A stretch of DNA of 64,000 nt from Candidatus Bathyarchaeota archaeon (GTDB lineage: Archaea > Thermoproteota > Bathyarchaeia > Bathyarchaeales > Bathyarchaeaceae): positions 5,206 to 69,205 of the forward strand of contig CAVOMX010000006.1 of NCBI GenBank assembly GCA_963697165.1. Direction: 5' to 3'. Below, piece after piece: positions 5,140-63,804 of this stretch. The position numbers were made by a program, and so were the translations under genes. Numbering within the stretch: position 1 is the first letter of the stretch; each line of letters begins with the position of its first letter. Under the pieces are notes generated by a model. That model was given only the letters and a program-made list of their open reading frames with translations. It was not told the origin of the DNA and searched no databases.

Positions 5140-6240
5140 TTATCTTATGGCTTTACACATTTTCGTGTCTTTACAAAGAACCCTATGAATTGCCGTTTCA
5201 GCTATTTCTGATCCTATTTCAGCTATTCTTCGAGCCCCCCACAATAGGAAGCTTATTTGAGCGACGGCACAAGCTTCTATCGGTCTTTTACCCTTGAAAT
5301 ATTTGCTCACCGAGAAATTTTTTCCATGCAAATAAGCAGAACTACATATCCTTTCCTGCAACATCTCTTCCGTTTGCTGAATCTCAAGGTATGTCTCTAT
5401 TGCTTTATTTGCCAGTTGGATATCGCTGGAGAAGAAACTGTTTATTGCTTCATGGCATATTCCATAAGTTCGTTCGTTAATCTCAATTATTTTTTGAATT
5501 AATTCTTCTCCAATGATTTCCTTGGATTTGTTTAAAGCAATAATTTTTTCTGCGGTTTTATTTGCCCAATCAGCGATAAGCCGCAAATATTGGGCTATCA
5601 AGCGATACCAGATAATTAGAGATGGGTTGTCTATTTCCATCTGGCTGGCTATGCCTTTGTCTCGTTGGCAGCTATTTAATAAGCGAACTATTACCCAGAA
5701 CATTGTGTATGCTTCTTTATCTCTGCGTATTGCTTCGCCTGCAAGTTCCACATCTAAATTCGGTAGAGAATCTATCATTTCTCTGTGCATAGTAGAGCTG
5801 ATTATGAACAGTCTTCTAAGCAGAGTGTTTATGGGAAATTTTGTTGTATCAATAGAGCATTGGATCAGGAGCGAATTGGGTGTTTCCTCCATTATGCCCA
5901 TACCCATCAGTTCACGTGTGATGGTCCTGATTTTGTTTACCTGCTCGCTGCTCAGCCTGTTTGTTGAAACTATTTTTATGCTATCGTATCCAAGGGAATA
6001 GACACCCATTAGAGCCCTACCCAACATTTTGGGGTCTTTACAAAAATCTCCGTTCAATTCAACTGTTGAGTCTGGCTGTTTTTCTATTTGTCCTGGGGTC
6101 ATTATTTTAAGTATGTTGCCTTCATCTTCTTTAAAGAAGACAAGTTGTCCCTTTTTTAAACCAACTTCTTTTACCCATTCATTAGGAAGTGAAACAGCTA
6201 AACTAGAAGATCCTACGCGTTGAACTTTTCTGGATTCCAT
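5140..6240 (-). CDS. AbrB-PhoU family regulator
   Basis: N-terminal RKVQRVGSSSLAVSLP (AbrB-like) followed by two helical PhoU-like domains. Confidence 0.85.
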   Translation of the reverse strand: MESRKVQRVGSSSLAVSLPNEWVKEVGLKKGQLVFFKEDEGNILKIMTPGQIEKQPDSTVELNGDFCKDPKMLGRALMGVYSLGYDSIKIVSTNRLSSEQVNKIRTITRELMGMGIMEETPNSLLIQCSIDTTKFPINTLLRRLFIISSTMHREMIDSLPNLDVELAGEAIRRDKEAYTMFWVIVRLLNSCQRDKGIASQMEIDNPSLIIWYRLIAQYLRLIADWANKTAEKIIALNKSKEIIGEELIQKIIEINERTYGICHEAINSFFSSDIQLANKAIETYLEIQQTEEMLQERICSSAYLHGKNFSVSKYFKGKRPIEACAVAQISFLLWGARRIAEIGSEIAETAIHRVLCKDTKMCKAIR

Positions 6241-6353: not shown

Positions 6354-6893
6354 ATGTTCAAGAATATATCAATGTTAAAAACGGATCAAAATGATGCAGC
6401 CCAAAAAGAATACCTTTTCCAGTGCGAGGGGAAAACGGTTTGCGTTAAGACTAACAGAGACTACACAAAAACTCACATGTGGACAAAGAATACTCTTGAA
6501 GGAAATCAAAAAATTGGAATAACTGATTATGCTCAGCAGCATCTAAGGGAAAAAGTAGGTCTAGTAGAGATCTCCAAGAACACCACAGTTGGTGAAGATG
6601 TTGAGGTCGGAGAAGTCTTTGGCACTGTTTATGGAAGACCCTGTGCAGACCTTGACGAGATGCGATGTGAGTACGTTGCCTTTGATCTTATAGCCCCAAT
6701 TAGCGGCAAAATAGTTGACATCAACTGGCGAATAATGGAAACTCCTGATATCATAAACAATAGCCCTTACGATGAAGGGTGGATTGTAACTATTGCCCCT
6801 AAAAATAAGACTGACTTAAGCGAGCTCATCACCGCGAAGGCCTACAAAAAATTGCTTGAAAAACAGGAGAAATCTCCCTTCAGAGTCTTGTAA
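6354..6893 (+). CDS. Glycine cleavage H-like protein lacking the lipoyl lysine
   Basis: YTKTHMW, IGITDYAQ, APISGKIVDIN and INNSPYDEGWI are GcvH motifs; the ES-V-K hairpin is replaced by YGRPCADLDEMRCEY. Confidence 0.85.
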   Translation: MFKNISMLKTDQNDAAQKEYLFQCEGKTVCVKTNRDYTKTHMWTKNTLEGNQKIGITDYAQQHLREKVGLVEISKNTTVGEDVEVGEVFGTVYGRPCADLDEMRCEYVAFDLIAPISGKIVDINWRIMETPDIINNSPYDEGWIVTIAPKNKTDLSELITAKAYKKLLEKQEKSPFRVL

Positions 6894-6920
6894 TATAGAA
6901 CGATCTAGTAGGTTCCCCAA

Positions 6921-7487
6921 ATGCAGAAATCTATAGTTCTTCCATCTACGGCAGAGAATGAACTGCGGCAGTTCATCTTTAAGACAACAACAGATGCTGC
7001 TCGGAAGGATTTGATTCAAGTGCTTCAAGCAGTTCAAGAAAGATACGGATATTTACCAAAAGAAAGCTTGCGAATGATTGCAATCAATCTGAGAGTCTCT
7101 TTTAGTGAAGTCTATGGTGTTGCCACTTTCTATCACCAATTCAGGCTTCAACCCCCTGGAATGTATGTGATCCAAGTGTGCATGGGAACTGGTTGCCATG
7201 CAAAAGGGAACGCCGACAACTTTGAGCACCTCAAATTGCTTCTTGATCTCAAGCCTGATCAATACATTACCAAAGACAAAGTTTTCAGTCTTGAATCAGC
7301 AAGATGCTTCGGATGTTGTAGTTTAGCACCTGTACTTGCGGTTACTGATAGCACTGGCAATTACCGGCGACTATACGGGAATGTTGACCAGAAGGTATTG
7401 AAGAAAATTTTAGCTGAATACAGAGAGAAAGCCAAACAAGAGGAGAGTGAACCAAAACGCGAAATAATAGTTTGCCCGAAGAGTTAA
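6921..7487 (+). CDS. NuoE/HydC-like [2Fe-2S] subunit
   Basis: VYGVATFY, VCMGTGC and RCFGCCSLAPV motifs. Confidence 0.92.
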   Translation: MQKSIVLPSTAENELRQFIFKTTTDAARKDLIQVLQAVQERYGYLPKESLRMIAINLRVSFSEVYGVATFYHQFRLQPPGMYVIQVCMGTGCHAKGNADNFEHLKLLLDLKPDQYITKDKVFSLESARCFGCCSLAPVLAVTDSTGNYRRLYGNVDQKVLKKILAEYREKAKQEESEPKREIIVCPKS

Positions 7488-9335
7488 TCTATGGCAAGAC
7501 AGGGTTTAAAATCAGAGTTCCCCTAGGTAGTTGCACAATTGCTGCGGGCGCTAACGAAGTTTTACAAAGTATAAATACAATTGTCAATTCAATGGGTTTG
7601 GATGTTGAGATAACTCCAGTAGGCTGTATGGGACTAGATTTCATTGATCCTTGGATTGAAATAACAAAGAAGGGCTATCCTTCCGCAATTTATGCTAATG
7701 TAACGCCAGACATTGTTGAACAAATTATTCGTGAATATTTAGATGAAAACTTCTCAAGCGCTTACGCATTCAGGTTCGGAAAAACCGTAGAAGAAAACGT
7801 TCCTTTACTAGATGAACTTGATGTGTGGAAGAATCAGGTCAGATGGATTTCTGGAAAATGCGGAATAATTAATCCCGAATCAATAGACGACTACACAACA
7901 GTTGGGGGCTATGAGGGCCTTAAAAAATGTTTGAGCATGAAACAGGAAGAAACAATAGAAGATCTAAAGAAAGCCAACCTCAGAGGTAGAGGCGGAGCAG
8001 GTTTTCCAACATGGATCAAATGGAACATATGCAAAGAACAGACAAACGACATAAAATACATAATTGCCAACTGTGATGAAGGTGACCCAGGCGCATTCAT
8101 GAATAGACTTCTGGCAGAATCAGACCCGCACAGAATCTTGGAAGGACTAATTATAGCAGGGTACACAATTGGGGCTCACAAGGGATTCATCTTTGTACGC
8201 GCAGAGAAACCTTTGGCTGCCAAACGGCTACTAAAAGCTGCTGAAGACGCAAGAGAGAAAGGTTTCCTAGGCGGAAACATTCTGGGCAGCGGTTACTGTT
8301 TTGACATAGAAGTTTTTCTGAGTGCTGGCGCTTTCGTTTGTGGCGAAGAAACCGCTATGATCGCTGCAATACAGGGCGAAAGAGCTACTCCTATCCAAAG
8401 ACCACCCTTTCCTGCCGTTAAAGGTCTATGGGGCATGCCTACAATAATCAACAATGTTGAAACACTCGCTCACGTGGCAACAATCATGACTGAAGGATGG
8501 GAAAAATTTGCCGCATTAGGAACTGAGAAAAGCAAAGGAACTAAGATGTACTGTGTCACTGGCTCTGTGAAAAGAACTGGAGCTTATGAAGTTCCAATTG
8601 GAACCCCAATAAAGAAGCTATTATATAATATAGCTGGAGGACCTCCCGAAGCTAGAAAAATCAAAGCTGTTCAGTTGGGTGGACCCAGCGGTGGCTGTAT
8701 TCCCGTAGACATGTTTGACTTACCCATGGATTATGACAGCCTCCAAAGTGCAGGAGCCATTATGGGCTCGGGCGGTATGGTGGTCCTGGATAACACAAAC
8801 TGTATGGTGGACATGGCTCGTTTCTTTCTTTCATTCACTACTGCTGAGTCCTGTGGTAAATGTTCTGTTGGACGTATAGGAACACGGCTAATGTATGAGA
8901 CATTGAAGCGGATCACTAATGGTGAAGGTACTGCTGATGACGTCGAATTATTGAAGGAAACCAGCGATGTCATTCAAAAAGCGAGTTTATGTGCACTAGG
9001 CAGAACAGCATCCAACCCAGTACCTGACAACACTTAGATACTTCGAGAAAGAATACGCTGATCACATCGAAGCTAAGAAATGCGAAGCAATGGTCTGTAA
9101 ACCACTTCTAACTTATCACATTAATTCTGAGAAATGCAAAGGCTGTCTAGTATGTGCCAAAAGCTGTCCTGTGCAGGCGATTTCAGGCGAGAAAGGCTCT
9201 ACACCCACAATAGATCAAACTAAATGTATCAAATGTGGAACTTGCGCAGTTAGCTGCCCCTTTGGTGTAATTGAAAATGTGCCTGGTAGACTTGTTGACC
9301 AGTCAGTAATACTTGAGGAGGGTTGCCGTAAATGA
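7472..9335 (+). CDS. NuoF/HydB-like FMN/NADH-binding subunit with C-terminal 2x[4Fe-4S] (frameshift near 9025)
   Basis: LRGRGGAGFP, DEGDPGAF, GAFVCGEETA; removing one C restores VLTTLRYFE..HIEAKKC and joins ferredoxin ORF 9090-9335. Confidence 0.9.
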
Positions 9336-9811
9336 TCTTTTCGAAAATTGAGCCCTATGAAGAAATAATTAAGAAACTGAATAAAAAAGAAGACAAGATA
9401 GCTATAATAAGCTGCAATACTTGTGCCCGAACCTGTGGAAATGGTGGACTAAACAAACTCAACGAGCTAGGTCTAAGATTGATACGTGATGGGTACTATG
9501 TGACCGATGAAGCTGTCGTATTATATGCTTGTTCAGAACCTATGCTCAGGGAAGCCAAGCTCGATCTGGAGGCTAACACAATTATTGTTCTTTCGTGTTC
9601 TGCAGGTTGGTCATGCTTTACGCGGAACTTTCCTGAAAAGAAAGTGTTGAAAGTCACAGAGGACATTGGCTTGGTTATGACTGACACGGACAATGAAATC
9701 TTCAAAGTTGTGATGCCCTACAAGAATCATGAATCCGAGATGGGAAAAGAGTACAGGATAAACACTGGAGAGCCCCTTGTTGGCGAAAAAATCAAAGTGA
9801 GGTGTGTCTAG
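9332..9811 (+). CDS. MetV-like N-terminal domain protein (Cys-rich)
   Basis: SCNTCARTCGNGG ... YAC ... VLSCSAG pattern resembles the N-terminus of the methylene-THF reductase partner MetV; no C-terminal Cys domain. Confidence 0.6.
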   Translation: MIFSKIEPYEEIIKKLNKKEDKIAIISCNTCARTCGNGGLNKLNELGLRLIRDGYYVTDEAVVLYACSEPMLREAKLDLEANTIIVLSCSAGWSCFTRNFPEKKVLKVTEDIGLVMTDTDNEIFKVVMPYKNHESEMGKEYRINTGEPLVGEKIKVRCV

Positions 9812-11011
9812 TTGATAATATCTGTTCGTTCATTATCATATGATCAACTTAAACGAAACTTAAATCCCGATGAAAAAATTATAATCTGGAGCTGCGATAC
9901 GTGTGTGAAGCACTGTGGCATCGCTGGAATGGAAAAGATGACTGCCCTAGAGGACTTGCTCAAGGAGGATGGCTACAATGTCCTTAAAAAGGAGCTTATC
10001 AGCGAATCTTGCCAGATCAACCTCGCTAAGAAACACAAGGCAACAGAAGAAGAAGTATTCAACGAAGCCACTGCAATAATTGTCCTCACATGCGAAATTG
10101 GCTATCAGTGCGTAAAAACTGTGTTTCCATACAAGAAGATTATTGGAACTGCGAAAACCTTCGGATCAGGAAACTTCAGCAACAAAAAAGGGCCAATCTT
10201 AACTTCACCTCTACCAACTACAGGTTTAGCCCTGGAACCAGAAGGTTACACTCTAAACAAGTTAGTGGAAGATTTCAATCTGTATCCCAAGTTCTTCGAT
10301 GCTGACAAAGTGCCTAACCCAGAAAAGATCACCATAACCGTAGATGGCAAACCTCTCGAAGTAAAGAAAGGCGGTAATTTGCTGGATGAGCTGGAGGCTA
10401 ATCGGATAAGAATCCCCCATCTGTGCTACGACTCCAGTTTAGGATCTATTGGAGCCTGCCGAATGTGTCTTGTAAAAATTGAAGGCAAAAGAGGCTTAAT
10501 CCCATCATGCTGCACTCAGATCGAAGAAGGTATGAACGTCACAACCGAAGATGAAGAGCTTGAGCGTCTTCGAAGGTCAGTACTGCAGATAATTATCGCT
10601 GAATGTGGAAATGAGATACAGCAAAGCAGAGACATCCGTTTCTGGATGCGTAGATACAAAATAACCGAAAACAGGTTCAGGCTCTCCAAAAAGGATCAAA
10701 TCGTCGACGACTCCAACGAGGTTCTTATCATGGACCCCAACCGCTGTATTCTTTGTGGAAGATGTGTTCGTGCCTGCGCTAATTTATCAGGTCAAAAAGT
10801 TATCAACTTCGCTTACAGAGGAAGCAACACTGTTGCAATCACTGGATTAAACGACGCTTTCGGTAACACCGATTGTGCACACTGTTTAGCATGTTCTCAC
10901 TACTGTCCAACAAATGCGATAACGCCTAAATCAGTCTCCAAGAAGATCTCAGGCTATCCATTCTGGACTCAAATTTCATATCCAAAGAAGATGGTACGCA
11001 CAAGCCAATAG
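9812..11011 (+). CDS. Fusion of a MetV-like domain and a NuoG/HydA N-terminal Fe-S domain
   Basis: SCDTCVKHC N-domain paralogous to 9332-9811; IPHLCY..GACRMCLV [2Fe-2S]; CILCGRCVRAC and CAHCLACSHYCP; no H-cluster or Mo domain. Confidence 0.75.
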   Translation: MIISVRSLSYDQLKRNLNPDEKIIIWSCDTCVKHCGIAGMEKMTALEDLLKEDGYNVLKKELISESCQINLAKKHKATEEEVFNEATAIIVLTCEIGYQCVKTVFPYKKIIGTAKTFGSGNFSNKKGPILTSPLPTTGLALEPEGYTLNKLVEDFNLYPKFFDADKVPNPEKITITVDGKPLEVKKGGNLLDELEANRIRIPHLCYDSSLGSIGACRMCLVKIEGKRGLIPSCCTQIEEGMNVTTEDEELERLRRSVLQIIIAECGNEIQQSRDIRFWMRRYKITENRFRLSKKDQIVDDSNEVLIMDPNRCILCGRCVRACANLSGQKVINFAYRGSNTVAITGLNDAFGNTDCAHCLACSHYCPTNAITPKSVSKKISGYPFWTQISYPKKMVRTSQ

Positions 11012-11098: not shown

Positions 11099-13031
11099 TT
11101 AGATTGTAAGTAGCCTGAAGGCTATTCCTCCAAGTAGAAGGGCTAGCGCGATTTCAAAAACAGTGATAAGTAATGCCTTCTTCCAGCCGAATTCTTTGAC
11201 CAATGCACCTATAGTCGCTACGCAGGGTATGTATAGCATTACCACTAGAGTGAAGACAATCATTTGAGCTTCAGTCATGACCAGAGCAAAGTTTGTGGTT
11301 CCCAACAGCGTAGCAAGCATTACCAACGTCAGTTCCTTTCTTAACACACCAAATATGAGAGCTATTCCCGTAACTGCTGGCAATCCAAGCCAAGTAACCG
11401 TTACGGGGCTAAATATGCTTGCGATTGGTTCTAACACGTTTGCAATCTCTGCAATTTTGATTACGAAGCTGCCCGCAATTATTAGCGGAAACGCCATTAC
11501 TATGAATTCTTGTAGTCTGAACCAAGTTTGCTTTGCAACCGTTTTCATGTGTGGTATTCTGTAGTCGTTCATCTCCATTATCAGTTCAGTTGGTTCGCCT
11601 GGAAGGGCTTTGAATGCTATCCTTCCGAGAACGAAGATTATGATTAGGTTTATGATGTAAAGCGCGAGCGCCCATTGGATCCCTACAAATGCCCCTACTA
11701 GTCCAAGGATGACGACTGATGTTGCAGCGCATGGTACGAGTGTAACAACAAATGCGGTTAAGAGTCTTTCACGGGTGGTCTCCATTATTCTGCATCCTAG
11801 ACACCCTGGAACATTGCAGCCGAAGCTGAGCATAACCGGAATGAATGCTTTTCCATGCAAACCCATTTTGTGCATTAAATTATCCATCAGAAAGGCAATT
11901 CGGCTCAGATACCCTGAATCTTCAAAGAGATACAACATGAAATAGAACGGAAGAATGTAAGGCAATGCAACTGTGACTCCGCCAATGATGCCTTCTATTG
12001 CTCCTCCCCAGACTAGTTCTCCAACGATTCCTGTTCCAAGAACACTGTCAAAAGCTTGGTTTCAAACCAAAAAAGAAGTCGCCTAAAAGAGCAGATGTGA
12101 AGTCCCCGAAACTGAATATTGCAACAAAAACGGATAGGATCGTCGTTAACATTATCGGATAACCGAAAACTCTGTGTGTTGTCGCAGTGTGCAGTTTTTC
12201 TCTCATGGGCATCTTCAGCGGCTTTGTTATCTCCTGAATTTCTTTCGAAATTCTGCTTGCCACTTCGTATATCTCAGACGTAACAACAGTTGGGCAGGAG
12301 TGACCATGAATCTGTTCAAGTTCTGCCCTAAGCTTTTCGGCAACTGCCACAATTTTTGGATTTGCTTCAAGAACCTCTTTTTCAACTTCTTTGTCTTCGT
12401 CTAGAAGTTTTATTGCAACCCATCTGGCGGGGTACCTCAACTGAGTTTTGTTAAGAAGTTTAACAAGTTTTTCAATTCTTTCTTCGATTTCTTTTCCGTA
12501 TCGTGGCTTCAGAGGGTCTATTTTTCTTTTTTTCTCGATAACTTCGATTGCTGTTTCCAGCATCTCATAGACGCCCTTTCCGCTGACTGCAACTGTTGGA
12601 ACAACTGGTACCCCTAGAATCTTCTCTGCCTTAGCATAATCAATAATAATGCCCTTTTTCTTTGCCATGTCAATCTGGTTTAAGGCTACTATAAGGGGGG
12701 TTTCCAGTTCCAGAAGCTGCAAAGTGAAGAACAGGTTTCTTTCAAGAAGCGAAGCGTCTACAACATTTATCACTAAATCGGGCTTTTCGGTTGCGATGTA
12801 CTCCCGTGAAATTAGCTCCTCCATGGAAAATGTTGACAACGAGTAGATTCCAGGCAAATCAACAAAGTCTATTGTGTAGCCTTTGAAATGTAGAGTTCCC
12901 TCAGCTTTTTCAACTGTTTTTCCGGGCCAGTTTCCGATATGCTGATGAAGGCCTGTTAATTGATTGAATATGACTGATTTTCCTACGTTTGCGTTTCCTG
13001 CCAAGGCAATTGTAAAATGGTTGTCGCTCAT
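11099..13031 (-). CDS. feoB: Ferrous iron transporter FeoB (frameshift near 12045)
   Basis: GNANVGKS, GNWPGKTVE and DLPG GTPase motifs; membrane part has FGCNVP and LYIPC. Confidence 0.93.
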
Positions 13032-13324
13032 CTTTCTGCATCCACAAGTATTCTGCTAGCCATTCCTCTGCCTATGGCTAACCTTGAACCCCTAACGCAA
13101 ACTTCTAGTGGTCCATTGAAAGGCGCTGACTTTACAACAGTTACTTCTGTGCCAGGGGTTAGACCCAAATCTGTAAGTCTTTTGACGCAGCGAGAGGTCG
13201 TAAAATGCTTTTTCCAACCTTTTCCTGCTCTATGTCCACACATCGGTTGTCCTTCTGAATTGAGGTCTGTGGATGTTATGACTCCAGTTTCGCCGTTCCT
13301 CAACGCTGTTAGTGGCAGCTCCAT
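13028..13324 (-). CDS. feoA: FeoA
   Basis: RLTDLGLTPG..APFNGP motif, adjacent to feoB. Confidence 0.9.
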   Translation of the reverse strand: MELPLTALRNGETGVITSTDLNSEGQPMCGHRAGKGWKKHFTTSRCVKRLTDLGLTPGTEVTVVKSAPFNGPLEVCVRGSRLAIGRGMASRILVDAER

Positions 13325-13402
13325 TAGTTTCTCACTTCTCCTTCACTTTTCTTAACATAGATGATCGATGCTACATCATGGTCGATTGTGCAGATTTTGT
13401 TC

Positions 13403-14023
13403 CTAACTCCGAATTGTAACAGAACCTCTAGGAACTATGTTTTCGATTTGCACTCTTTCTCCGGGTTTGAGTTTTAATTTGGTAAGTTGTTGTAGGGTCT
13501 CAGTTTTTTCTTCAGTTATCTTAACAATAACTCCACTAGTTTTGGCGTCAAGTTCAGTGAGAGCTACTGTTTCGTCTTCAAGGATTCCTCCACAACCTGT
13601 CGGTATCGGGTTTCCATGAGGGCATCTTTTTGGGTGCCCTAACGCTTTCTCTAGTGGCTTGAGTATTTCTGGTGAAATGGCATGTTCTAGTTTGCAGGCT
13701 GGGTCGTGGACCTCGCTCCAGTCTAGATGTAAAAAATCTGTTAATAGTCGTTCTGCGAGTCGGTGTCTCCTTAGAATGCTTGAAGCAATTTTTTGTCCAT
13801 TATCAGTTAACTTTACTCCTTTGTATGGTTCATGAATGACCAGTCCTTTTCTTTCCAAGTTTTCGATTGTGTTTGTAATCGAACCAGGAACTACTCCCAA
13901 TTCTCTGGAAAGATCCATTGTTCTGGCGAATCCTACTTTGCTTTGTAAGCGGTAGATTGCCTCTAGATATTCTTCGGCTTGGTTGGTGACTTGTTTCTCT
14001 TCGGTGTTCATGACTTTCACCAC
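13403..14023 (-). CDS. DtxR/MntR metal-dependent repressor
   Basis: EEYLEAIY, RRHRLAE, CKLEH, CPHGNPIP, FeoA-like C-terminus. Confidence 0.92.
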   Translation of the reverse strand: MVKVMNTEEKQVTNQAEEYLEAIYRLQSKVGFARTMDLSRELGVVPGSITNTIENLERKGLVIHEPYKGVKLTDNGQKIASSILRRHRLAERLLTDFLHLDWSEVHDPACKLEHAISPEILKPLEKALGHPKRCPHGNPIPTGCGGILEDETVALTELDAKTSGVIVKITEEKTETLQQLTKLKLKPGERVQIENIVPRGSVTIRS

Positions 14024-51256: not shown

Positions 51257-52156
51257 TTACTCCAGATTCAACACTTCTTTTAGATTTGCTTTAAACGGAC
51301 CAAGCTTGCCTCCGTAGTTACCAGCAGTAATCTTTATGACTCCAGGAACTTTGATTGCAGCCTGTATTCCTTCACCCATAGCAGCTTTCACAACTTTCTG
51401 GTTCAAACCATTTATTACAATCTCGTAGACGCTATTAACACCGTCTGGAACCATAGAGTCAGACACCAATTTCTTGATGGTTGGACAATATTGATGGCTT
51501 GTAGATGCAGGAAGCTTATAGTTAAGAGATCCAATTTTCGATCCTGCCCTGCATAGACCGCCGGGGAAGGGCATAATTACTCCCCGAACATTCTTACTGA
51601 TGGCTTCTTTAGCGTCTTCCGATGCCTTTAGAGCAACCTCCCAGTCTTTTGCTAATATAAGCATGTTTCCACTGGCAACTGCTTTCATGATTCCGAAGGT
51701 ATCTTCAACTATGAATTCGCCTTCCATAACTGGTATTCGCCAAACTTTCCTTCCAGCAACCTCGTCACTTTTCTGGAAGCCGTCTCCGAATAGGCGTAGG
51801 CTTCTGCCAATTTTGACTCTTCTTTTTGCTTTGGGTAACGCGTCGAAGGCTGCTGTTGTTGGGCAGGTCATGATGCATTGTCCGATTCTTAAACTCATTT
51901 GGTGCTTGAGATCGCCTCTTGAGCTGTGGTAGATTTGAATGATGGCTCCTGGACGTCCGTCTGGAGTTTCTTTTGGAGATACAAGTCCTTCTACTGATGC
52001 CTCTGCTGGTGACATGATGATGGATGAAGCGAAGCCTGATGCGGTTCTTGCTGCGATTAATGCCCATTTTTCATTGGCAGCAGTTATCAGTATTCGACCT
52101 GCCCACATTGGAAACATTTCGGCGAATGTATCCTCTATGGTGCAGAATGTTTCCAT
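51257..52156 (-). CDS. ftr: Formylmethanofuran-tetrahydromethanopterin formyltransferase (start uncertain; homology extends to 52208)
   Basis: IEDTFAE, TPDGRPG, RIGQCIMTCPT, PFPGG..GSK and ITAGNYGGKLG motifs. Confidence 0.93.
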   Translation of the reverse strand: METFCTIEDTFAEMFPMWAGRILITAANEKWALIAARTASGFASSIIMSPAEASVEGLVSPKETPDGRPGAIIQIYHSSRGDLKHQMSLRIGQCIMTCPTTAAFDALPKAKRRVKIGRSLRLFGDGFQKSDEVAGRKVWRIPVMEGEFIVEDTFGIMKAVASGNMLILAKDWEVALKASEDAKEAISKNVRGVIMPFPGGLCRAGSKIGSLNYKLPASTSHQYCPTIKKLVSDSMVPDGVNSVYEIVINGLNQKVVKAAMGEGIQAAIKVPGVIKITAGNYGGKLGPFKANLKEVLNLE

Positions 52157-52209: not shown

Positions 52210-53373
52210 TTACTTTCTTTTTCTGAAGATTTTGATTCCGTCTCTTTCTGTGACATACTCGAAACCTGCCATTAACAACTCTTCGTCTTGTTTTAAACTT
52301 TTAGATGTTGCGGTGTGATACTCGTCACTCTCAAAGTTCACAAAATGGGTGTAAATAAGTGTAGATGTTATGTTCCTGTGTCCAAGTCTCTCTTTAACAT
52401 GAAGAATGTTTTTTGTTTTGAAGTATTCCAATGAACCATAGAGATGTCGAAGAGTGTGAAAGGTGATTTTGTCTATTCGGGGATTCTGTAGTTTATTGGC
52501 TACATGTTTTCGTTGTTGCCTGAAGTTTTTTCTGAAATGTTTTAGTTGAGTATTTCCGAATATTTTCTCTCCTGTTTTCGGTAGCATATTAAGCATTGAA
52601 ATTAGTTTGCCTGATATCTTGAATTGACGTGGTAAACCATTTTTTTCAGGTTTGTTGATTGTTAGGATTCCTTTCTCCTGGTCAAAATCTATCCATGTTA
52701 ATTGCCATGCTTCTCCATACCTGCAACCTGTCTCGTTCAATAATTGAATGAATGTCGCAACTTTCCGACTACAACCGCCAATTAATGCCTCGATTTCTTT
52801 TGTTTGTGGTAGCCACGGTAATTTTTCTTGTTTTTTCCCCATGTTTCAAAGTTGATTTGTTCAGAAATCTGTATGTTACATATTTGGCAAAATGATTTGT
52901 AAGCAATTGCAGAGTTTTTTTTAGCTCCATCAGTCCAGTTCTTTTCTGTTACTGTTCTGGTTTTATGGCTGAATTTTTTGGCCTTGTTAATAATGTGAAA
53001 GACACTTTCAGGGTTTGTTAAGGTTGCTCCACGTTTTTGCAGTAACTTCAACACGTTTACTCGGTTTATGATTGTTTTAGGTTTCAGTCCTTTAAGAATC
53101 AGTTTTGCTTCATAGTTTACTAAATGTCCTTTTGTGGTCGATTCTCCCGCAGTCTGTTTTTCGTTTTGTTTTGACTGCGTCCAAGTTTTTCACTCTCTCT
53201 GTTTCGAGAGCGCATATTTGGCGACCACGTGTTATCTGGTAGTCTTTATAATATTTTTCATTGAAACGATAACCACAGCTTCGACAAAGATATCTTTGAA
53301 ACACCTTGCCCTGAACGTAACGTAGACCATCTTTCCAAATCATAGAGTTGGTACATTCAGGACAAACCAGCAT
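52210..53373 (-). CDS. Tyrosine recombinase/integrase with N-terminal Zn ribbon (two frameshifts)
   Basis: CPEC..CRSC; catalytic GCR, FHTLRH, LGH, TLIY; three ORF pieces join. Confidence 0.88.
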
Positions 53374-54276: not shown

Positions 54277-55272
54277 TTGAGTAATCTTAGATGTTTTATT
54301 AGTTATTCTTGGGATCACCAAAAACACAAAGATTGGGTTAGATTATTAGCAGAAGAATTAAGAAAAAACGGCGTAGATGCAAAATTAGATCAATGGGATT
54401 GCCAGCTCGGAATGGATTTGGCAAATTACATGGAAACTGGCATACGGGAATCCGATTTTGTTCTTTTGATATGTATCCCCATTTTTTGTGAGAAAGCTAA
54501 TTCTGGAACGGGTGGGGTTGGATATGAGAAATGTATTGTTACAGGTGAAATATTTCAGGGAACTGACCCTAGGAAGTTTATCCCAATTCTCCGTGAAGGT
54601 ACTCCAAAAGAATCCATGCCATCATACCTTAAATCAAAAGTTTACATAGATTTTCGAAACGATGGAGAATTTGATTCAAATTTGGAAGATTTATTGAGAC
54701 CGATTTATAAAAGTCCCAAATATGTTAGACCTCCACTTGGATTTAAACCACCTTTTAGTAATGATTCCCAACAATCTGGAATCAGTGGGAAAAAAGTTAA
54801 GATTTGGGATTTTAGAACATACCGACTAGTTTATGATTATGCTATTAGTTATTTTGGAATGAAGTTACTTCCAGAACAAGCAAGAGAGTTTGCCGACGAA
54901 TGGATGTTCAAACACTCGGATAGAAATTTTGAGGACTACAAACAGGTCTACGAGTATGCTGTCAGTTTTATTGGAATGAAATTACTTCCTTCAGCTGCGA
55001 GATTGTTTGCTGATAAATGGATGACTGAATACGCGGATAGAAATTTTGATGGCTACAAACAGGTCTACGAGTATGCTGTTGGCTATTTTGGAATGAAGTT
55101 ACTTCCAGAACAAGCAAGAGAGTTTGCTGACGAATGGATGTTCAAATATTCCAAGACAGATTTTGGTAATTTAAAACAGATCTACGAGTATGCTGTCAGT
55201 TCTATTGGAATGAAATTACTACCTTCAGATGCAAAAGAATTTGCTTTGGAAAAAATTAAAGAACAGATTTAA
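54277..55272 (+). CDS. TIR/SEFIR-domain protein with C-terminal ~39-aa repeats
   Basis: FISYSWD, LDQWD, GGVGYE; four YEYAV..GMKLLP repeats. Confidence 0.88.
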   Translation: MSNLRCFISYSWDHQKHKDWVRLLAEELRKNGVDAKLDQWDCQLGMDLANYMETGIRESDFVLLICIPIFCEKANSGTGGVGYEKCIVTGEIFQGTDPRKFIPILREGTPKESMPSYLKSKVYIDFRNDGEFDSNLEDLLRPIYKSPKYVRPPLGFKPPFSNDSQQSGISGKKVKIWDFRTYRLVYDYAISYFGMKLLPEQAREFADEWMFKHSDRNFEDYKQVYEYAVSFIGMKLLPSAARLFADKWMTEYADRNFDGYKQVYEYAVGYFGMKLLPEQAREFADEWMFKYSKTDFGNLKQIYEYAVSSIGMKLLPSDAKEFALEKIKEQI

Positions 55273-62067: not shown

Positions 62068-63804
62068 TTATTTTTTATTGGGGAAGTTGAGGACTAACTC
62101 TAGTGCACTTGATTTTATTGTTTTCTGTTGTAGTTTTCTAGCTAGTTCCATCGCGAAGTTGTAGTTATATTGGCCTTTTCCTGTTCTTCGAACTTCTTTT
62201 AGCATTTCAATTTCTGTTTCATGTTTGAGTTGTCCTATCGCTAATGCACCAATTCCATAAATTCCTTGCGCGATTTCGCGCATATCATCGTGCGGTTTTA
62301 TGCCTTCAACTCCAAGTGGTGGAATGGCGTTTATGTCTGCTAAAACTTTTAGAAGCCTTACTTTTTGTAGCATATCTTTATCTATGATTTGAATTCCACG
62401 GGTTCCTGCACAGAATATTACTTCAGCTTTTTCGAAGAGCTCAAATTTTTTCTCAGCGTTAGGCGCGAAAAATCCTTTAACGTTTACTCCATATTTTGTG
62501 TTTATTTTTTCTGCAAGTTCTGCTGCATATTCATCGCCATTTTGTCTATTGGGATTCAAGCTCGCAATCGTAACATCAGACCCAAGTTTTGCTAACAAGA
62601 CAGAGATTATTCTTCCTACAGAACCTGTGCCGAAAACTGCACAAGTTTTATTGCCTAGATTTCCAAGGTTATTAGAAGATATTGCTTCTTCTACTTTGGC
62701 AACCGCTGCTGCTGCAGTTGTATATGCACCCGCTGGATCTATTACGACACTTGCGTTGAATGGGGCAAACATTGCTTTTGTTATTACATTTGCGGTTTCT
62801 TCTGCTTGATCAATGTCTTTTCCTCCAACGAAAAAGGTGGTTCGTTTTACTCCTTTTGGACCTCTTGAAAAAACTGCATCTTCAACTATAGTTTTGGCGT
62901 CTTTTGAGTTAACGTTTTCGTATGGTATTACTGCATCATATCCTGCGTCATATGCCATGCAAACGTCGAATGGGCTGGCTATTTTGTCTGAATCTAGGAA
63001 AAACAACAGGTAAGGTAATTCTATTGACTCTTTTTTAAGTGTTGGTTTTACTTTAATTTGCATAGCCTGTACTAGTTCATCTATGCTTTTCATTTGTGAC
63101 GCATCTTGGAAGGGTAAATTCACTTCCTTTGAAACTGTTATTGTTTCAACTGTGACGTTTAATTTTTCTAATAGTTTTGCTATTCCTTTTGAATGTTCAG
63201 GGCTACTAATGTGAATAGACATCAATTCTTTGTTTGAATTTATGTTTCTTGCTGTCTCTAAAATTTTCATAACAATCCATCTTTCTCTTACAGAGAAATT
63301 TACTTCATTTTCTTGTTTTTCTAGTTCACTCTGCAGATATTGGCCATATGCAATCATGTATTCTTCTTCAATACGGGACTCAGATTGTTTTTCTTTTTTC
63401 GTAAAACGAGCATTCAATTCTTTAATGATTTGATCTCTAAGTTGTTTCTTTTCATCTAATTGTTGAGCTATATATGATTTAGCATTTTCTTCGATATCAG
63501 CTGGGAATAAAGAAATGTTATTTTTACTAAAGACTGGTAATAGATTATTGTTATCGTTAAACTCTTCAATTGAACGCATGCCCAGCTCATCTGTAGCAAA
63601 ATTTGGTTTAACCTTTTTGATCAATTTTTCCAGAAAACCAGTGAAAGCAATAGATGGTTTCTGAAGTGCACTCAGTTCATTGTGAGGTTTGTTGGTAGGT
63701 TCTATCAACCCGAAGGGTTCATTATATTCTTTTTCAACTAATAGAACTGTTAATTTTTTGTCTTTTAATTGTTTCAGTTCCAATGACTCCATTTTTCTCA
63801 CCAA
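62068..63804 (-). CDS. NAD(P)-dependent methylene-H4MPT dehydrogenase (MtdA/B-like) fused to a ~260-aa N-terminal domain
   Basis: SPFDVCMAYDAGYD, FSRGP, DPAGAYTTAAA, GTGSVG, ADINAIPPLG and GIGALAIGQLK motifs. Confidence 0.82.
   Translation of the reverse strand: MVRKMESLELKQLKDKKLTVLLVEKEYNEPFGLIEPTNKPHNELSALQKPSIAFTGFLEKLIKKVKPNFATDELGMRSIEEFNDNNNLLPVFSKNNISLFPADIEENAKSYIAQQLDEKKQLRDQIIKELNARFTKKEKQSESRIEEEYMIAYGQYLQSELEKQENEVNFSVRERWIVMKILETARNINSNKELMSIHISSPEHSKGIAKLLEKLNVTVETITVSKEVNLPFQDASQMKSIDELVQAMQIKVKPTLKKESIELPYLLFFLDSDKIASPFDVCMAYDAGYDAVIPYENVNSKDAKTIVEDAVFSRGPKGVKRTTFFVGGKDIDQAEETANVITKAMFAPFNASVVIDPAGAYTTAAAAVAKVEEAISSNNLGNLGNKTCAVFGTGSVGRIISVLLAKLGSDVTIASLNPNRQNGDEYAAELAEKINTKYGVNVKGFFAPNAEKKFELFEKAEVIFCAGTRGIQIIDKDMLQKVRLLKVLADINAIPPLGVEGIKPHDDMREIAQGIYGIGALAIGQLKHETEIEMLKEVRRTGKGQYNYNFAMELARKLQQKTIKSSALELVLNFPNKK

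Follow-up and report, generated by a model that had tools for sequence, protein, structure and literature searches.

The stretch of DNA analysed here (the window; 64,000 nucleotides of a Bathyarchaeum-like archaeon, contig CAVOMX010000006.1) carries five genes on the plus strand that are packed into a tight operon at positions 6354-11011, as delimited by calls of open reading frames (ORFs) and Pfam (Table 1). The window is archaeal, its nearest records being 'Candidatus Bathyarchaeum' and metagenome-assembled genomes of Bathyarchaeota. A gene for a GcvH-like protein is followed by genes for BfuC, BfuB, a small protein of 159 amino acids and a larger protein in which a domain related to the small one precedes a minimal BfuA module; the junctions within the operon comprise a 16-nucleotide overlap, a 4-nucleotide ATGA overlap and a 0-nucleotide gap. 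By homology, these genes appear to encode a soluble flavin/iron-sulfur oxidoreductase built on the BfuC-BfuB-BfuA core of the Bfu family (HydABC/NfnABC-type), which carries in addition two domains homologous to the N-terminal half of MetV (MetV-N). Judged by its gene content, this Bfu-type core with two MetV-N domains and without a known catalytic module is a combination for which we found no prior description.

An earlier note on this DNA, made from the letters alone, had listed the same tightly coupled set of NuoE, NuoF, a stand-alone and a fused cysteine domain, and ORFs, Pfam and BLASTP confirm it at the same positions. The long HydB-type NuoF described there is correct with respect to its domains, but the gene does not form one open frame in the window: an extra C at 9023/9024, missed in that note, interrupts it (see below). 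The statement that the window holds no H-cluster, NiFe or molybdopterin domain and no metF stands as well. Indeed, Pfam detects none of these among the 62 window ORFs, nor any formate dehydrogenase, methylenetetrahydrofolate reductase (MTHFR), Mer or PF12225 domain, and there are no HoxYH or Nuo membrane genes in the window. Other Bfu enzymes bear a hydrogenase, formate dehydrogenase, NADPH or tungstopterin module.

Table 1. Features of the operon, its direct neighbours and the BfuB-GltD fusion loci (window positions unless a locus is named)
Feature	Position	Strand	Size	Basis or remark
PhoU/AbrB-type regulator	5140-6240	-		divergent, on the upstream side of the operon
GcvH-like protein, operon gene 1	6354-6893	+	179 aa	Pfam GCV_H E 2.6e-23; stops 27 nt short of the next gene
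BfuC / NuoE-like [2Fe-2S] subunit	6921-7487	+	188 aa	Pfam 2Fe-2S_thioredx E 1.2e-39; four Cys of cluster C1 present
BfuB / NuoF-like, first reading frame	7472-9037	+	521 aa	Complex1_51K 9.5e-44, SLBB 7.1e-10, NADH_4Fe-4S 1.4e-23
Frameshift site, extra C	9023-9024	+		DNA compared with L002-L007 and three-frame translation
BfuB continuation, +1 frame, 2x[4Fe-4S] ferredoxin domain (B3/B4)	9024-9335	+		Fer4 5.6e-17 on 9090-9335
Stand-alone MetV-N-type subunit	9332-9811	+	159 aa	profile search reaching MetV proteins
MetV-N-type domain at BfuA N-terminus	9812-10210	+	residues 1-133	BLASTP to the 159-aa protein
Conserved linker LTSP ... FFDAD, MetV-N domain to BfuA module	10211-10324	+		invariant residues in fusion proteins
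Minimal BfuA / HoxU / NuoG-N module	10325-11011	+		Fer2_4 5.3e-20 and Fer4 models
Whole fusion protein	9812-11011	+	399 aa	residues 171-381 are HoxU/NuoG-N-type [2Fe-2S] + 2x[4Fe-4S]
FeoB, split into two frames	11099-13031	-		convergent to the operon
GltD-type BfuB fusion	L008:3148-6318; L012:49-1707		1056 aa in L008	two MetV-N genes follow as usual

The Bfu-type core and its ligands

The Bfu family has been defined by the BfuABC domains together with an invariant set of BfuB and BfuC cofactors (Schut et al., 2022; PMC9304861). The domain set is found here: BfuB has the flavin mononucleotide (FMN) and 4Fe-4S domains of NuoF, SLBB and Fer4, BfuC has the four cysteines of cluster C1, and BfuA has the required minimum, a 2Fe-2S and a 4Fe-4S ferredoxin-type domain. 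In BfuB a degenerate N-terminal thioredoxin-like domain (GCMGLD) is followed by the FMN/NADH domain, SLBB and the B1 motif (ESCGKCSVGR ... LCALGRTA). The B2/Zn-site motifs TNCMVD and HIEAKKCEAMVCK (H/C/C) are also present, the latter within the +1-frame part, and so is the B3/B4 tail.

Among solved enzymes, BfuB and BfuC score best against NfnABC/StnABC (Caldicellulosiruptor saccharolyticus, Csac, 9BOV/9BP5; Thermococcus sibiricus, Tsi, 9N5U), which are described as Bfu-family NADH-dependent ferredoxin:NADP+ transhydrogenases, the 9bov entry being confirmed as Csac Nfn (PMC11829005, PMC12018979). With the intact BfuB ortholog of locus L007 as query, Csac NfnB (9bov_B) reached 680.7 bits and Tsi NfnB (9n5u_B) 679.7 bits. 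The chain 8oh5_B followed with 656.3 bits; it was deposited as 'NAD-reducing hydrogenase subunit HoxF' and we take it to be the Sporomusa ovata StnABC enzyme. Scores were 621.1 bits for the NiFe-Bfu HydB 7t2r_B, 564-605 bits for the FeFe HydB chains 7q4v_B, 8a6t_B and 7p5h_B, and 368.1 bits for Nqo1 of Thermus thermophilus complex I (2fug_1). The best solved match of BfuC is NfnC 9n5u_C (109.2 bits), with which its motifs CmgtgCh and CfgCCslaP align, followed by the NiFe-Bfu HydC 7t2r_C and Csac NfnC 9bov_C. These matches bear out the HydABC/Bfu-type core that had been proposed. The BfuA module (residues 172-374) aligns to the N-terminus of the NiFe-Bfu HydA 7t2r_A (E 2.1e-36); Pfam finds in it one [2Fe-2S] site and two four-cysteine [4Fe-4S] motifs, and no catalytic domain.

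The resemblance to NfnABC includes the domain order of BfuB, from the thioredoxin-like domain over FMN, SLBB, B1 and the H/C/C site to B3/B4, and the start of BfuA with a [2Fe-2S] and a ferredoxin-like module. In contrast to NfnABC, the window operon has no NADPH/flavin adenine dinucleotide domain (Pfam) and its BfuA stops after two [4Fe-4S] motifs, whereas it possesses MetV-N both at the N-terminus of BfuA and as an additional subunit; its B1 has three cysteines and its B5 an aspartate. HoxEFU and the NuoEFG N-module of complex I have three subunit families in common with the window, yet the BfuB studied here possesses the Bfu-typical extra N- and C-terminal domains and the MetV-N domains have no counterpart there. 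HoxU and NuoG/NuoE/NuoF models are among the best NCBIfam matches, every score lying under the curated cut-off (e.g., 149.4 against 333 for HoxU and 423.7 against 558.65 for nuoF_fam).

The ligand deviations to which the earlier note had drawn attention (CGKCSVG, GCMGLD and a missing His-ligated cluster motif) are real. A four-cysteine B1, as expected in the Bfu family, is not found: the third cysteine is a glycine in ESCGKCSVGR, and the fourth (LCALG) is kept. Since the same motifs, ESCGKCS[VA]GR and GC[MI]GLDF, occur in 7/7 Bathyarchaeia (the window and L002-L007), they do not represent sequencing noise. The four distant relatives compared (L008, L009, L010, L014) all read ESCGKC[VT]PCR and GCxGxC instead. 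The His-ligated cluster (PF10588) is not detected in the window BfuA at E<=0.01, nor in 59 of 74 relatives; it is present in the other 15 fusion relatives and in six of the seven distant loci scanned. In the alignment, no H/C motif of the window BfuA stands opposite HfCmyC...C of 7t2r_A, and some relatives keep HxxC...C. As far as these alignments tell, the Bathyarchaeum lineage has all three deviations fixed (B1 CxxCxxG, B5 Cys-to-Asp, loss of the His-ligated cluster), and the sites are canonical in distant relatives.

What these changes mean for catalysis can be considered in the light of the two solved Nfn-Bfu enzymes. Cryo-electron microscopy of 2025 is reported to show Zn rather than a cluster at B2 and B5 of the active enzymes, with B5 dispensable in both, and B1-FMN-C1 is given as the minimal bifurcation site (PMC11829005, PMC12018979). 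The B5 change may therefore be harmless. Electron bifurcation by the window enzyme is uncertain, because B1 of that proposed site has three cysteines only. A cluster, perhaps [3Fe-4S], would still be bound at B1, as BfuA is expected to be wired to FMN through it. The remodelled core of the Bathyarchaeum lineage may thus differ from canonical Bfu enzymes in its working potentials, or may not bifurcate at all.

The MetV-N domains and their conservation with the core

The 159-amino-acid protein has no match in Pfam, NCBIfam or the PDB sequences. Residues 1 to about 120 of the fusion protein share 34% identity with it (BLASTP E 1e-17). It consists of an alpha/beta domain with C28, C31, (C35), C67 and C89, a short beta subdomain and a tail; the corresponding cysteines of the fusion N-domain (C28, C31, C35, C67, C94) are invariant in the fusion alignment, as are the linker residues L130, P133, G145, F161 and F162 in 17 fusion proteins.

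A profile of the domain, made from 21 sequences of the window, the loci and further relatives, was run against 1.84 billion representatives and retrieved 499 of them at E<=1e-3 and 112 at E<=1e-10, mostly stand-alone proteins of 120-170 amino acids. Of 38 listed matches of at least 187 amino acids, 37 were scanned with Pfam, the known fusion P0118 being left out. PF12225 was found in 27 of them at residues ~105-205 (26 above the gathering score), and the profile is matched by their residues ~1-120. The remaining ten are three BfuA fusions, two fusion fragments, a fusion with a HycI-like domain and four proteins without a notable domain. In the whole-library search, MetV proteins appear at E 1e-9 to 1e-15. 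A joint alignment of six window and locus domains, ten MetV-type proteins and the HycI fusion keeps C28, C31, G39, L50, C67 and C89 in 17/17 sequences. More widely, the four cysteines are conserved in 154 of 159 domain sequences and the third cysteine of CxxCxxxC in only 103.

From these alignments we conclude that the small domain and the MetV N-terminal half are homologues, and that MetV is a two-module protein of which the window proteins carry the N-terminal module only. The likeness covers the N-terminal ~110 residues: a start with MI(I/F)..., CxxC(xxxC)xxGG and two further cysteines. Unlike MetV, the window domains have no Cys-rich PF12225 half, lie in separate clades and are not found beside metF in the window or the related loci scanned. 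The earlier suggestion of MetV-like domains, for which a profile check had been proposed, thus holds for the N-half and fails for the PF12225 half: neither 9332-9811 nor 9812-10330 matches PF12225, even at E<=10. Pfam is silent because the homology lies outside PF12225; taken by themselves, the blanks in Pfam and NCBIfam would have led us to reject a homology that exists.

This division agrees with what has been written on Acetobacterium woodii, where MetV residues 104-200 are assigned to an 'MTHFR C-terminal' domain that some organisms carry as a fusion with MetF (Poehlein et al., 2012; PMC3315566). Electrons are assumed to reach MetF through MetV, which has 8 conserved cysteines, and RnfC2, an NADH/FMN subunit, has a MetV-like N-terminal extension of 220 amino acids (PMC3315566, PMC8760232). 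The type III methylene-tetrahydrofolate (methylene-THF) reductase RnfC2-MetV-MetF described for this organism accordingly resembles the window in combining an NADH-oxidising FMN/Fe-S subunit of the NuoF/RnfC kind with two modules of MetV type, of which one is free and the other fused to the redox subunit. However, its modules are of full length (N-half and PF12225), metF belongs to the operon and the fusion is on the flavoprotein itself, whereas in the window only the N-half is present, the fusion is to a NuoG/HoxU-type subunit, NuoE is included and there is no MetF nearby.

AlphaFold2 predicts a confident alpha/beta fold for the 159-amino-acid protein (predicted local distance difference test, pLDDT, 90.9; predicted template modelling score, pTM, 0.84), and in its model of the fusion residues 1-133 are confident, with strands and helices ordered as in the small protein. 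With Foldseek, the 159-amino-acid protein has no PDB match at E<=1e-3, the best being generic Rossmann-like lobes (RecJ, solute-binding proteins, Dph2) with TMq at most 0.45; an origin of the four-cysteine alpha/beta domain from NuoB or a hydrogenase small subunit, which we considered, is not supported by this fold search. No solved MetV structure was found, a MetV-type protein having no PDB match below E 0.7. The ESM Atlas returned only unnamed clusters and ordinary GcvH clusters. Among plasmids, tblastn yielded 355 records matching the NuoG/FdhA-like part only, none of which matches the MetV-N domain.

With the N-domain alignment as query, 14 loci were recovered from 185,579 species genomes: seven from Bathyarchaeia, two from unclassified archaea, two from Bacteroidales, and one each from Desulfobacterales, a genome labelled Herpetosiphon and Chloroflexi. 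The small gene lies directly 5' of the fusion gene in 14/14 loci, operon conservation being one of the checks suggested in the earlier note, and BfuB is upstream in all 12 loci whose upstream sequence is long enough to hold a gene, if the L001 ORF, cut by the contig end, is counted as BfuB by its position and length only. In Bacteroidales (L009, L010) the four-gene module stands alone. A conserved hydrogenase or formate dehydrogenase partner, which according to the same note would speak against a module of this kind, does not occur in the 14 loci; the 76 related-locus ORFs scanned (41 + 35) hold no hydrogenase, formate dehydrogenase, molybdopterin, MTHFR or PF12225 domain. In a tree of the domain, the small copies (SH-like support 0.947) and the fused ones (0.613) form separate clades that comprise the same loci, and the MetV N-halves form a third clade (0.974) without Bfu-linked members. 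The latter includes P0304 (252 amino acids), which combines in one chain a MetV-N domain and that of a HycI-type hydrogenase maturation protease (Pfam HycI 1.3e-11). Pairwise identities of the small and fused paralogs in nine loci are correlated (r = 0.85, reached by 0/2000 label permutations), which shows joint inheritance and not contact, as relatedness alone can produce such a correlation.

In the two loci from unclassified archaea, L008 and L012, BfuB is fused to a GltD/NfnB-type NADPH module (Fer4_20 + Pyr_redox_2) that replaces the C-terminal ferredoxin domain. In contrast to NfnABC, the NADPH module is here on BfuB in place of B3/B4 and not on BfuA; going by domain content, these loci look like a differently wired Nfn-like enzyme. 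In the Chloroflexi locus a gene with a homocysteine S-methyltransferase domain, linked to methyl-folate, lies ~6 kb downstream of the module (L014:10281-11255, +), with a 2-oxoacid:ferredoxin oxidoreductase pair in between.

The GcvH-like protein and the genomic surroundings

The first operon gene encodes a GcvH-like protein that stays under the cut-offs of the NCBIfam GcvH models. When aligned by HMMER to GcvH of T. thermophilus (1onl_A), the protein shows a tyrosine in place of the lipoyl-lysine and an inserted loop, GRPCADLDEMRCEY; the N-terminus has a CEGKTVC motif. The four cysteines C24, C30, C97 and C105 (CX5C and the CX7C loop) are invariant in 6/6 copies from Bathyarchaeia, and 45 of 56 close family members have both motifs. 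In all five Bathyarchaeia loci that reach that far, the gene lies ahead of the other operon genes.

On the far side, the operon faces an iron-uptake cluster in which FeoB is followed by FeoA and a DtxR-type iron-dependent repressor (13028-14023, -); judged by ORF sizes, such a convergent cluster is also present in L002-L004, L006 and L007. Upstream of the regulator, L003 has genes for Mrp/NUBPL-type P-loop Fe-S carriers (one with Fer4) and two NifX/NifB-like 'Nitro_FeMo-Co' genes (L003:1281-4643, -); L007 has ORFs of the same size, and the cluster is not at that place in the window. Further away, the window encodes Ftr, the formyltransferase acting between formylmethanofuran and tetrahydromethanopterin (H4MPT) (FTR + FTR_C; 51257-52156, -), and a 578-amino-acid protein with an Mpt_N domain, the N-terminal domain of methylene-H4MPT dehydrogenase (62068-63804, -). 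The organism thus has parts of an H4MPT-dependent one-carbon pathway. A phage-integrase-family gene (52210-52842, -) near a gene for a TIR/SEFIR-domain protein (54277-55272, +) lies in an AT-rich stretch that may be a mobile or defence island.

The role of the MetV-N pair

By homology, NAD(H) would react at the FMN of BfuB, and ferredoxin at the C-terminal two-cluster domain (B3/B4) of BfuB together with BfuC. BfuA seems to be stripped to one [2Fe-2S] and two [4Fe-4S] sites, its third-substrate end being replaced by the two MetV-N domains. Each of these would hold a metal centre, most likely an Fe-S cluster, and the two together would constitute a third site of electron entry or exit, whose acceptor would be found outside the conserved four-gene module. 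We give about an even chance to this reading, in which a new Bfu-family variant exchanges electrons with its third redox partner through the MetV-N pair. It is based on the view that MetV is the electron entry module of MetF and on the MetV-like extension that joins RnfC2 to MetV-MetF. In addition, the replacement of the ferredoxin domain in L008 and L012 leaves the MetV-N end as the only free port there.

Several observations weigh against such a port. The third cysteine of B1, part of the proposed bifurcation site, is missing in all seven Bathyarchaeia, and BfuB is frameshifted in this window. Solved BfuA subunits are described with at least three [4Fe-4S] clusters (PMC11829005), compared with two motifs in the window BfuA. 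The metal content of MetV-N cannot be read from sequence, and its four-cysteine site could be a structural Zn site, because MetV is reported to contain both Fe-S and zinc (PMC8760232) and its C-terminal half alone has about 8 cysteines. AlphaFold2 models the whole fusion with a pTM of 0.45 and a low-confidence [4Fe-4S] part; the position of MetV-N relative to BfuA is not fixed, so that no electron path can be drawn. The only candidate partner in sight, the GcvH-like protein of the Bathyarchaeum lineage, is not encoded before the Bacteroidales or L008 operons, and members of its family that are 54-59% identical (P0356-P0361) retain the loop without its cysteine pair, which weakens an essential redox role of the loop cysteines.

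Complex prediction for the small subunit and the fusion N-domain (1-170) with the GcvH-like partner, run without controls, gave a score of 0.17 against a mark of 0.32, which speaks neither for nor against a link to that protein. We hold it unlikely that the MetV-N pair is itself the catalytic third site of a new class of Bfu enzyme, which in Bathyarchaeum would reduce or oxidise a metal or dithiol centre of the lipoyl-less GcvH-like protein. If true, the operon would code for an 'H-protein reductase' linked to NADH and ferredoxin. As a protein-borne replacement of the lipoamide/L-protein couple, this enzyme would tie the NAD and ferredoxin pools to glycine and one-carbon metabolism. It would be an archaeal revival of the GcvH-MetV electron link that was discussed and then set aside for the clostridial MetVF (PMC8760232). 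The idea of a module feeding the Cys-loop H-protein, put forward in the earlier note, finds no clear support: the gene belongs to the operon in the Bathyarchaeum lineage only, and the loop cysteines are missing from more distant members of its family. The same note had named methylene-pterin reduction as another destination of the electrons. Here the operon would be the NAD(P)H input module of a methylene-tetrahydropterin reductase, with MetV-N docking on a MetF-type enzyme whose gene lies elsewhere. Such a MetF, for instance one joined to the PF12225 half or acting alongside it, would complete a split MetV and give an analogue of RnfC2-MetV-MetF in which NuoEF replaces RnfC. The true homology to the MetV N-half fits this, as do the MetV-like domains on the NADH/FMN subunit of the type III reductase and the fusion of the PF12225 half to MetF in some organisms (PMC3315566). 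ANME-1-type MetF is reported in uncultured archaea including Bathyarchaeota, and all MetF of ANME (anaerobic methanotrophic archaea) are said to adjoin a MetV gene (PMC9012536). The H4MPT-dependent route of the window organism and the homocysteine S-methyltransferase domain gene of L014 may be added. However, MTHFR (PF02219) and PF12225 are found in 0 of the 62 window ORFs and 0 of the 76 related-locus ORFs, which include the scanned flanks; the Bacteroidales modules have no neighbours of this kind; and the MetV N-half clade holds no Bfu-linked sequence. Both window proteins fail to match PF12225 even at E<=10. This explanation is possible only if a MetF with the PF12225 half is encoded elsewhere; none of the 15 contexts (the window and the 14 loci) lends it support, and we consider it rather unlikely.

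An enzyme without any third substrate, i.e., a non-bifurcating NAD(P)H:ferredoxin (or NAD(P)H:dye-type) diaphorase in which the MetV-N domains are structural Zn modules or extra wire clusters for assembly or oligomerisation, would explain why the operon is self-contained in four phyla without a partner gene. The three-cysteine B1, the aspartate in B5 and the lost His-ligated cluster of the Bathyarchaeum lineage fit such an enzyme, as do the core-subunit NCBIfam scores below all curated cut-offs, Zn in former cluster sites of the solved Nfn-Bfu enzymes and the description of MetV as a Zn- and Fe-S-containing protein (PMC8760232). Yet in distant relatives both MetV-N proteins accompany a core with all canonical Bfu ligands; hence the pair did not arise through decay. 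Moreover, B2, B3 and B4 are present here, whereas sites B2-B5 are reported missing from non-bifurcating homologs (PMC9304861). The four cysteines kept in 154 of 159 sequences and the duplication in 14/14 loci argue for a selected function, and in L008 and L012 the GltD-type module takes the place of B3/B4 with the MetV-N end left over as the free port. A plain diaphorase appears rather unlikely. The broken BfuB frame and the split FeoB next to it could also mean that the operon is a decaying pseudogene cluster without function in this genome. The NuoF-type frame stops at 9037 (...NPVPDNT*), and its continuation (LTTLRYFEKEYADHIEAKKCEAMVCK...), which lies in the +1 frame from 9024, leads to the ferredoxin tail; this part, 9024-9335, is colinear with residues 519-603 of intact BfuB orthologs. 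Where the window reads GTACCTGACA (GTAC[C]TGACA), the relatives L002-L007 read GTACTGACA or GTACTAACA, and BfuB is a single frame of 591-625 amino acids in all six, just as FeoB has 643-644 amino acids in relatives. The break amounts to one base in the length of a run (C versus CC), no other codon of the five genes is disrupted, their identity to relatives is 77-96%, and the relatives have them intact. Further overlapping ORF pairs on the same strand occur, for example, at 2643-3545/3421-3789, 25878-26651/26447-27010, 43370-43795/43674-46115, 50192-50638/50508-51173 and 59747-60169/60078-60449. Taken with the FeoB and BfuB breaks, these pairs suggest single-base assembly indels rather than gene decay, and a pseudogene cluster is very unlikely. 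Programmed frameshifting or recoding at 9023/9024 was rejected, as 6/6 relatives have one C fewer and are read through in one frame.

In summary, we propose a Bfu-type enzyme whose only unexplained parts are its two MetV-N domains. The published classification has 17 BfuB clades without an assigned third substrate, and the term MetV has 0 occurrences in its text (PMC9304861). No description of MetV-type domains on a NuoEFG/Bfu complex was found among the papers listed by full-text searches, though supplements could list such clusters. One orphan Bfu type hereby gains a defined, testable anatomy: a four-gene module present in Archaea and three bacterial phyla. Bfu enzymes set the NADH/ferredoxin balance of many anaerobes. 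The MetV N-half emerges as an independent and widespread unit, which bears on how electrons enter the MetVF-type methylene-THF reductases, and the Bathyarchaeum lineage offers a natural three-cysteine variant of B1 inside the proposed B1-FMN-C1 bifurcation site. The system is of clear interest to research on electron bifurcation and on MetVF. To our knowledge, the energy metabolism of the Bathyarchaeia, abundant archaea of sediments, has been inferred from genomes only, and a conserved but unassigned NADH/ferredoxin enzyme in this group would represent a real gap in its metabolic reconstructions.

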